DNA of 64,000 bases. Origin: an uncultured Chlamydiae bacterium (GTDB taxonomy: Bacteria > Chlamydiota > Chlamydiia > Chlamydiales > JAJFMA01). Numbering within the stretch: position 1 is the stretch's first letter; every line of letters starts with the position of its first letter. The notes beneath the pieces were generated by a model that saw nothing but the letters and a program-made list of their open reading frames with translations, ran no database searches and was not told the DNA's origin. Below, piece by piece: positions 48,227 through 50,616 of the stretch. Position numbers and translations under genes: made by a program. The stretch lies in contig CAVQMM010000001.1 in the NCBI GenBank assembly GCA_963713615.1, positions 2,720,001 through 2,784,000 of the forward strand. The letters run 5' to 3'.

Positions 48227-48420
48227 TGTTACCTCACTGGTAGGCCAAGAAGCGGTTAACATTGCTTTTTCAACCTTACCGACCATCGTTCAACAGATTA
48301 TAATTTAAACAGATACGCGATTTTACCTTAAAATCAACTTTGGAATCAAGTCTTTTTTCAGGCAGATGAGAGAGGGAGGGGAGGGGGCGATTGAGAGAAA
48401 GAGGATTAGGATTAGGATTG

Positions 48421-48636
48421 GGATTTTACCACAGAGGACACAGAGACGCCGAGATAGGAGAGAGAGGATTAGGAAAGAATGTTCAGTTACTGTTGGCTCT
48501 GGACAAAATCTGTCTAAGGACTTTACCAAAACGACAACCTCTCAAGAAGCCCTTAGGCAGATTTTGTCTAAGGCCCCACAGACGACACATTCTCTCCTAA
48601 ATCCTCTCTCTCCTATCTCGGCGTCTCTGTGTCCTC
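48421..48636. repeat. Family D inverted doublet interrupted by IS110 (right arm resumes at 50567-50588)
   Basis: Left arm GGATTTTACCACAGAGGACACAGAGACGCCGAGATAGGAGAGAGAGGATT; right arm stops at ...CTCTGTGTCCTC and continues as CTCTGTGGTAAAATCC at 50567. Confidence 0.9.
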
Positions 48637-48839
48637 CTAAATAACATTTTTGAGGGGCCAGCGTCAGAAAGGAGACATGAGGGAACATCACGCAAAGTTG
48701 GCAAAGTTTTTTCTGCTGTTTGCGTCTATAGAGCAGTCAGAAGTTTTTTTTAATTCATGATCGGGATCCCTAAATTTATATGAGCATCTTCTAACCGTAA
48801 TCAAATATGCAAGTGTCATATTTTGCCCTTCCAACTTAA

Positions 48840-48960
48840 AGGAATGGGACCACTCTCCTAAACGGGATAGCTAAAGCTTCACCAATGATAATGTCGACGA
48901 CTTGCTGGACCAAACTCTGTGACGGGCAATAATGCACCAACGTTTTAACGGCCTCTAGGA
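48840..48960 (-). ncRNA. Candidate IS110 bridge RNA core (target- and donor-binding loops)
   Basis: Two GGACCA-NN-CTC...ACGGG...CACCAA motifs 60 nt apart; one holds CTCTGTG (core plus target flank), the other CTCCTAAA (core plus element end). RNA ends are unknown. Confidence 0.7.
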
Positions 48961-49023
48961 TTGATTCGGTTGATTGCTCGCTTCTTGTATTCATCACTAT
49001 GCTAGATATCTAAAAGTTCAACA

Positions 49024-50402
49024 TTATCCATTGGCGACAAGCTTATAACCCATCTCCCTTGCTTGTTTTTGTATACGGTTGAGGTTTTTTTGCCGCTGCT
49101 CTTTTTCGAACTGCTCTGCTCCAAGTTCGTGATACTCTTTTTGATATTTCAGCATATGATAAATGATTCTGGCTAGTTTGTGAGCCGTTGCTGTAATGGC
49201 TTTTGGTGCTCCAAGTTTAGCCCTCATACGACGGTAATAGGCTCCTAGATAACTATCCGAAAAGGTAAGCGAATAAGCTGCCATACGTAATGCTTCCTTA
49301 ACCCGATTTTTACTTGCCTTTGTCCTTCCACTGAGTACCTTTCCGCCAGATACCTTATTACCAGGACAAATCGCCATCCACGAGCTAAAGTGTTTTTTGG
49401 TTTGCCATTTACTCATGTCAGTACCTATCTCTGACAATACCTTGGCAACAGTGTTTTCATTGAGACCTGGGACTTGACAAAGATCAACTCCCGCCCAAGA
49501 ATGCAGCTGTTTTTGCATATCAAAGGAAAAAGGGCTTCGATTGTATGATCTTTTTATGCTCTTTTTTAATTTTGGCTTTTTTTCATCAGGCTTTATTCTA
49601 TCCACCTTTTCAAAACTATTAATTACTTGCTTAATCTTTTCCTCACATCTGATTGCTTGCTCATGAAAGAACTTATAAGCTTCCCAGGCCTGTCCTAAAG
49701 CAAATAAATGTTCCTCGCGCCAGTTTCCTTCCAGAGCTTTAGCAATCTTTTCTTCACTTGATTTGCACCTTTCATCCCTTAGACGTGCCAACTGTGCAGG
49801 GTTGCGTTCTCCACCAAGAATTGCTTCGATTATAAGAGACCCTGTAAGACCAGAAATATCGCTCACAACCTGAGCGAGTTTAATATTGAGTTGTTGCAGC
49901 GCCTTGTGGGCATAGTTGAGTTGGTCCGCCGCTCGTTCAAAAAGAGCCTTTCGGTGACGCATATATGCCCTCAGCCTGACAACGTGATCCGCTGGCCTGA
50001 AAGATCCATTCAAAAGTCCGAAGGCATGCAAACGTTGAATCCACTTGGAGTCACAGACATCTGTTTTTCGGCCTGTTACATTTTTCATGTGATGCGCATT
50101 GACAAGATGAACACTAAAGCCTTCTTGTTCGAGCACCTCGAAGACGGGAATCCAATAGACGCCTGTAGACTCCATGGCAACAGTGTCTACACCGCATTTT
50201 TTTAACCAATGCGCCATCTGATGTAAGTCAGCGGTGAAGGCGACAAATTCGCGAACCTGCTCTGGGTCTCGACCGGCAGGAACACAGACAAACACACCTT
50301 CTGCTCCTACATCAATACCGCAAGCATTTGGATTGATGATTCTTAATCCTTCAGTATCGTTTTCTTTTGCTTTGGGGGCTTTTTTTGTGTAGACTTAGGC
50401 AT
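49024..50402 (-). CDS. IS110 transposase/recombinase, full length only with a -1 shift near 50380
   Basis: GIDVG, MESTGVYW, RKTDVCD (DEDD) and PGNKVSGGK (Ser motif); the ATG at 50402 is out of frame and joined through CAA AAA AAG. Confidence 0.88.
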
Positions 50403-50616
50403 GACGAAACCTTAATTTAAGACGTTTGGGTATTCCCCTGGCAGCTCTCAAAGGTCTGCCAGGGGACGTCATTTTGCCAAATCAGTCCCTTCGATGTAAG
50501 TTATTTGTAGATATAGCTCGCCATCCTACACCACTCCGATCCCCAACGGGCGCAGCGAGTGGGGTACTCTGTGGTAAAATCCTAATCCTTACTCCTCTCC
50601 TACCCCTCTTCCTCTC

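Follow-up and report, generated by a model that had tools for sequence, protein, structure and literature searches.

A chlamydial IS110-family element with a predicted bridge RNA whose donor loop suggests a folded single-stranded donor

What does a bridge RNA read when one strand of each of its loops finds no partner next to the core? This question is raised by an IS110-family element in a window of 64 kb (the whole stretch of DNA that was analysed) from a chlamydial genome of 3.97 Mb that is 99% complete. The preliminary description of the window had proposed that the non-coding region downstream of the recombinase gene encodes a bridge RNA, but could not match the 5'-side loop strands to the opposite flanks, so that either recognition was one-sided or the loops had been mis-drawn. 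A gene for an NTP/NDP exchange transporter, together with the composition of the group that was searched, suggests that the host is an environmental chlamydia. The element and its surroundings comprise the following features.

48634 to 50568, minus strand: IS110-family element from one core to the other, the core reading CT on the plus strand and AG on the transposase strand; sole copy in the genome
49024 to 50402, minus strand: recombinase gene of about 459 codons with a DEDD RuvC domain (D27, E74, D111, D114 of P0001) and a Tnp domain (S348)
50379 to 50387, minus strand: A7G run and frame-change point, A_AAA_AAG in the start-codon frame, with the A7 at 50380-50386
48434 to 48636, no strand assigned: target repeat unit with perfect 37-nt inverted arms (48434-48470 and 48600-48636), the right arm being split by the element and resuming at 50569-50589

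The junctions of the element are crossed without indels by contigs of 151-162 nt from public soil and peat DNA runs (right junction, X8 record 8; left junction, X2 record 16, X4 record 28, X5 record 3 and X7 record 6). As expected of an IS110 element, both junctions carry a short core, with neither a target duplication nor terminal inverted repeats. Three letters are common to the two junctions, CTC on the plus strand or GAG on the transposase strand; AG (CT on the plus strand) is the best reading of the core, given that the letters shared by the junctions of relatives are AG or AA. Right ends were independently set by multi-copy alignment in G195 (four copies) and G245 (three copies). A circle joint of the element was absent from eight contig sets of sparse cover.

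The element splits the right arm of a perfect 37-nt inverted repeat, and the intact opposite arm allows reconstruction of the empty site, which in its exact 16-nt form occurs 26 times in the genome. This repeat is a unit of about 230 nt within 48366-48636 with a conserved inner hairpin (48495-48575), and belongs to a REP/MITE-like family with 213 matches in 145 clusters genome-wide, 61 of which hold both orientations. A separate comparison with congeners counted 122 matches in this genome and weaker ones in all three congeners. No gene that could mobilise the repeat was found, and a pattern search of the whole genome for GxxExxY-like genes returned none.

The gene upstream of the motif region is an IS110 recombinase, as had been claimed: PF01548 and PF02371 are both found, and NF033542 scores 242.6 bits (cutoff 140). 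Its DEDD and Tnp-serine residues are intact, align with those of IS621 and do not vary among 25 sequences. The start codon at 50402, however, lies in a different frame from the body of the gene, and the frameshift in the A7 run explains why the listed 423-aa open reading frame lacks its N-terminus. It is not an assembly error, because one contig (X4 record 27, 50282-50432) bridges the run with zero differences and zero gaps. All eight relatives checked have an in-frame start, unlike this copy, in which the frame change may be a programmed -1 slip or the one-base loss of a dead copy. A mid-gene change of frame, at the same A8-A9 run each time, is seen in four related IS110 elements of chlamydiae, of which two are multi-copy (transposase-strand positions 2217 in L025, 2229 in L026, 2239 in L027 and 2221 in L028), suggesting a programmed frameshift or transcriptional slippage. 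Two G111 copies (L033 and L039, not L014) carry a 98-nt palindromic insert with a short duplicated flank just before the transposase stop codon, a MITE-like passenger.

Downstream of the gene, the predicted RNA and its guides are arranged as follows.

48809 to 48955, minus strand: predicted bridge RNA of about 150 nt, with the target loop followed by the donor loop in a multi-branch junction; ends set from helices
48941 to 48948, minus strand: 5'-side target guide, matching the right flank in this copy at 2/7 positions, one of which is the invariant core position
48913 to 48922, minus strand: 3'-side target guide with handshake bases; the guide proper (48915-48922) is 7/8 identical to left flank plus core
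48913 to 48914, minus strand: handshake dinucleotide, 1/2 identical to the first left-end bases in this copy
48887 to 48893, minus strand: 5'-side donor guide, 5/7 identical to an internal left-end site and 1/7 to the canonical position
48855 to 48862, minus strand: 3'-side donor guide, 8/8 identical to right end plus core

The two motifs on which the bridge-RNA proposal was built are indeed present, exactly 60 nt apart, and their words match the element's own end and its target: CTCCTAAA at 48855-48862 equals 48634-48641, and CTCTGTG at 48915-48921 equals 50567-50573. Both words occurred jointly in one of 5,000 dinucleotide shuffles of the non-coding region. In a helix alignment of 22 relatives, 97.3% of cells were paired over 15 pairs, eight of which showed two-sided changes, a result reached by none of 500 shuffles, the structure having been drawn by hand from the same alignment that was used to score it. 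Three helices covary among relatives, and the high fraction of paired cells backs the drawing of the loops, which the preliminary description had doubted. Folded under constraint, all 11 downstream RNAs formed a closing stem around the donor loop, and most added an extra 3' hairpin. The two-loop motif was detected in 28 of 30 loci of the same order, 75 of 80 metagenome loci and none of 12 distant loci, with a model built from 22 of the loci later counted; it also occurs in plasmid or phage relatives. A scan of genome contigs with a single protein query yielded just relatives in the 24-36% identity range, in which the motif is absent.

Other searches for signs of an RNA gave little. Folding the 387-nt non-coding region by itself, as the preliminary description had suggested, performed no better than shuffles (z +1.1 and +1.4). 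Rfam contained no family covering the RNA, with only sub-threshold miRNA-like matches, located on the target hairpin. A promoter scan found two weak sites against 1.3 expected, no terminator was found, and the rebuilt circle junction contained no consensus promoter by a pattern of our own.

Whereas the RNA lies upstream of the transposase gene in most relatives, it is downstream here, and this element clusters with six chlamydial elements with downstream RNA (SH-like 99; FastTree). On this tree, the position of the RNA switches at least three times. Some elements are adjoined by a second bridge-like RNA with different guides (L123 1941-2050, L124 1960-2067, L047 1716-1836, L078 2402-2522 and L065 700-819), which sometimes has a pair of ends to itself, as the ssr9 module does in ISPpu9; these are possibly RNA-only mini-elements or nested insertions.

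If the motif is a bridge RNA, its guides should vary together with insertion sites among homologues, and for the 3'-side guides this covariation was found. An exact 7-mer of the 3'-side target guide occurs in the left flank window of 44 of 70 elements (permuted mean 3.7, max 10), where the left ends of single-copy elements were placed via the target guide and hence are not independent of it. For the 3'-side donor guide, an exact 7-mer occurs at the right end in 74 of 83 elements (permuted mean 8.9, max 18). These counts omit six second-module or duplicate RNA hits as well as incomplete hits, and eight identical guide sets were removed (100 to 92). The handshake bases of the target loop equal the first two left-end bases in 59/65 and 43/65 elements (permuted 34.2 and 18.5). 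Within one genome, a G111 copy differs from two others by one guide base and by the same flank base. The family-wide motif, the covarying helices and the covariation of 3'-side guides and handshake dinucleotide with the junctions all support the proposed reading, and on this comparative evidence the two-loop motif is almost certainly the bridge RNA of the element, a class already known.

The 3'-side guides and the handshake bases all pair with the antisense strand, which by analogy would be the strand exchanged first. Several elements (L019, L025-L028, L031 and L108), mostly chlamydial and with upstream RNA, have a 7-nt target guide identical to that of this element or one base off, and they too are inserted in similar purine-rich repeats; it follows that the repeat word is a target common to different subclades. 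A natural change of core marks a well-supported subclade, whose 25 elements with an AA core (L045, L051, L061 and L125 among them) have A-tract target guides and TT at the matching 5'-side positions. Two further elements are aimed at element ends: L123 (302-408) has a target guide that agrees with the right end of a different element from its clade, and L127 (288-411) stands in tandem behind a copy of itself.

The 5'-side strands behave differently. Across the family, the match of the 5'-side target guide with the right flank is weak (2.38/6 against 1.55 permuted, 69 elements), and 20 of 40 elements have no match beside the core. No alternative partner emerged in 232 target slots or in the element ends; a 5/7 complement of this guide to the left flank, seen in this copy, was rejected for want of support in the family. 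For the 5'-side donor guide, agreement with the canonical position at the adjacent left end was 1.16/6 against 1.34 permuted, with none of 49 elements reaching 4/6. The donor loop therefore does not follow the IS621 pattern, in which a duplex circle junction is read on opposite strands around the core. Instead, it matches a site inside the left end, for which the relevant features are these.

50510 to 50516, minus strand: internal left-end site copied by the 5'-side donor guide, on the same strand as the guide
48639 to 48645, no strand assigned: right-end subterminal 7-nt repeat, 3 nt inside the core
50500 to 50506, no strand assigned: subterminal repeat in inverted copy (7/7), located 60 nt in from the left end
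50517 to 50566, no strand assigned: spacer that would loop out on fold-back; arms 50517-50521 and 50555-50559 fit the family layout, while the energy prefers another hairpin register

The internal site lies on the same strand as the guide, 10 nt before the inverted 7-nt copy of the right-end subterminal repeat, and was positioned from this repeat alone. The guide agrees with it at 3.43 of 6 positions (permuted 1.83, max 2.41), and 29 of 49 elements reach 4/6. When all offsets and strands were scanned in 40 AG-core elements, the top signal among 58 slots fell on the internal-site slot (z 11.4; next 3.4). In a held-out set, all 11 AG-core elements scored 4-6/6 with a one-base offset allowed, while two AA-core elements failed; 13 of 21 held-out loci could be scored, L151 (a duplicate) and L129 (doubtful left end, 3/6) having been removed by hand and the others lacking an end, a full RNA or the repeat. 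As a group, the 12 AA-core elements do not exceed permutation (2.92 against 2.80). Among 30 nearest-neighbour pairs in the tree, the own guide beats the swapped one in 13, loses in 3 and ties in 7, the guide being the same in the remaining 7; in the close pairs L014/L015, L130/L123 and L043/L128, guide and internal site change together. The match holds with the RNA upstream or 1.4 kb downstream. A fourth G111 copy has an altered internal site, but is truncated before the RNA and hence fell outside the scoring. It is thus correct that neither 5'-side strand matches the flank adjacent to the core, but the donor strand does have a partner, at 50510-50516 and on an unexpected strand. Recognition, which had been considered as perhaps one-sided, looks so by sequence on the target side in this copy, but not on the donor side.

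The surroundings of the internal site have a conserved layout. An inverted copy of the subterminal repeat with at least six of seven matches is found 28-62 nt inside the left end (at 29-40 or 59-60) in 49 of 55 two-ended elements. The spacer between site and end is 20-51 nt long and tends to form a hairpin (mean z -1.13, against -0.08 in the adjacent control), which is present in 45 of 49 spacers, with a linker of 5-9 nt in 36 and a gap to the site of at most 2 nt in 37; the GC-rich hairpin absorbs the differences in length. The bases just inside the repeats are non-complementary (11-32%), as a bubble requires. When the antisense circle junction is folded, the repeats pair and the hairpin closes the far side, resulting in a stem-bubble-stem. 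In this copy, the repeat stem has a pairing probability of about 0.7, but the inner hairpin of the model one of 0.01, and the model fold lies 3-5.5 kcal/mol above the minimum. Fold energies show no preference for the antisense strand (of 62 junctions, antisense was better in 24 and sense in 36); G-T wobbles in the repeat stem favour antisense 6 to 1, four of those six belonging to one subclade.

From these patterns, we consider it likely that the donor is read as one folded-back DNA strand and transferred, competent for insertion, as a single strand. The RNA would be made as part of the recombinase transcript or cut from it. By analogy with IS621, the antisense strand, with which 3'-side guides and handshake bases pair, would be cut first and copied out as a single-stranded circle. 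On this strand, pairing of the subterminal repeats on one side and the spacer hairpin on the other would enclose about 11-12 unpaired nt as a bubble. The two donor guides could then read one arm each, facing them just as they would face a melted duplex donor. Only the arm with the true junction would be joined to the target, and replication or repair would make the other strand. Transfer of one strand is the workable outcome, since swapping both arms would cap the ends of the chromosome with hairpins; it would also yield the junctions observed. Choice of the target would fall mostly to the 7 nt of the 3'-side guide, which in this element spell a word from an intergenic repeat that is abundant. 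For the clade as a whole, we lean towards a scenario in which a large AG-core group, with which ISPpu9 was placed by eye comparison of protein domain sequences, exchanged the duplex donor for an RNA-read stem-bubble-stem, with folding of the excised strand and one-strand pasting, and in which, among chlamydiae, the RNA was relocated at least twice from the left end to the right.

In earlier reports, the evidence on a folded donor points both ways. Single-strand excision and top-strand integration are described for IS621 and CazIS110-1, which for insertion, however, prefer or are modelled with double-stranded donors. Deletion of the ISPpu9 A box abolishes circles, in line with a folded donor, but a mutant of the A-box hairpin still gave circles by PCR, and movement of ISPpu9 from a suicide plasmid does not reveal the strand form used (PMC12288879, PMC8450116). 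Against the model also speaks that guide and site match at just 5/7 in the present copy. It is conceivable, if rather unlikely, that an ordinary double-stranded circle inserts while only half of the donor loop reads, through the 3'-side guide and protein contacts at the repeats, the internal site giving a second hold on the copied-out strand solely during excision or within a transient cruciform. Such a role in excision is what the A-box deletion points to, and the reported half-match recombination of IS621, the preference of CazIS110-1 for duplex donors and fold energies free of strand bias would all agree with it. However, the internal site is 20-30 nt from the core in most elements, which given the general stiffness of DNA is too close for a duplex loop, so that some fold-back would be needed anyway, and constant linkers around a variable hairpin fit a complete donor mimic.

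That the 5' donor strand is no DNA guide at all appears improbable. Its match would then be a by-product of common descent or of a duplicated short stretch of the end, or of RNA-RNA contact with a left-end antisense RNA, for which Asr9 in ISPpu9 is an example; both ISPpu9 and ISPpu10 do carry antisense RNAs, located upstream of the transposase gene. Kin share guide and site, leaving 14 of 30 neighbour pairs uninformative and 3 going the wrong way, and the AA-core clade is without signal, yet guide and site change together in close pairs, and the position of the site is locked to the inverted repeat whether the RNA is upstream or 1.4 kb downstream. Most improbable of all is an invertible segment, in which the first 20-50 nt of the left end would flip to create a canonical duplex donor and flip back after insertion. 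AG and CT do border the segment in this copy, and inversion would bring the partner of the guide beside the core; but none of 49 integrated elements shows the flipped form, and at the presumed inner core the second base is highly variable. In wild-type ISPpu9 circles, A box and B box join at the AG (PMC12288879, PMC8450116).

There is open debate on the strand form, single or double, in which IS110 elements move. If a clade exists whose donor guide can be satisfied only by a folded single strand, this debate becomes testable with a few point mutants of ISPpu9, which is already active in the laboratory. A folded-back donor would also account for the conserved 43-nt A box of ISPpu9, canonical rules of guide prediction would give the wrong donor for this clade, and its enzymes would be RNA-programmable recombinases for folded single-stranded DNA cargo.

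Folded single strands are known as recombination substrates from integron attC sites and IS200/IS605 ends, where one strand is exchanged and replication resolves the product. There, recognition is by tyrosine or HUH enzymes that use no guide RNA, and no homology to the present element is implied. In the passages of the IS110 literature that were covered, which include text from 10.1101/2025.10.25.684509, 10.64898/2026.08.31.748434 and 10.64898/2026.08.14.744561, we found no description of a fold-back donor or an internal donor-guide site.

The element shares with IS621 and ISCro4 (IS622) a DEDD RuvC and Tnp-serine enzyme, a dinucleotide core, a target loop followed by a donor loop, a hairpin that splits each loop and handshake bases after the 3'-side guide (PMC11208160, PMC11208158, PMC13626964, 10.1101/2025.05.14.653916). 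Unlike these systems (328 aa), it has a recombinase of about 459 aa, a downstream RNA and guides on opposite strands relative to the transposase gene; its 5' donor guide reads an internal same-strand site rather than the core-adjacent flank, and its 5' target guide is unmatched. With the IS1111-group seekRNA elements ISEc11, ISPa11 and ISKpn4, it has in common a long downstream non-coding region, a subterminal inverted repeat, a top-strand match 5' of the bottom-strand match and donor guides in a multi-branch loop (PMC11187229). It departs from that group, whose transposases have 330-350 aa (same source), in size, in the absence of subterminal repeats near both ends, the left copy lying 60 nt inside, and in the upstream RNA of most relatives, among which it nests in a tree built without an IS1111 protein. 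Since this RNA family has repeatedly moved between ends, its position is of little use for telling IS110 from IS1111 elements. In ISPpu10, as here, DNA secondary structure aids recognition, through a target stem-loop gate, and one target guide is permissive, but the ISPpu10 structure belongs to the target, and its donor was mapped canonically (10.64898/2026.03.19.712850).

ISPpu9 of Pseudomonas putida shares the AG core and a REP target, and its 43-nt A box has the end layout found here, combining a linker and a hairpin with the B-box repeat in inverted form (6/7); its Ssr9 primers contain the same RNA motif words (PMC12288879, PMC8450116). Unlike here, its long non-coding region is upstream of the transposase, and the text covered contains no guide map or folded donor. 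Taken together, these comparisons suggest that the bridge RNA belongs to a known class, and that the new part is a variant donor loop, which departs from the canonical pattern and agrees with a donor made of one folded strand.
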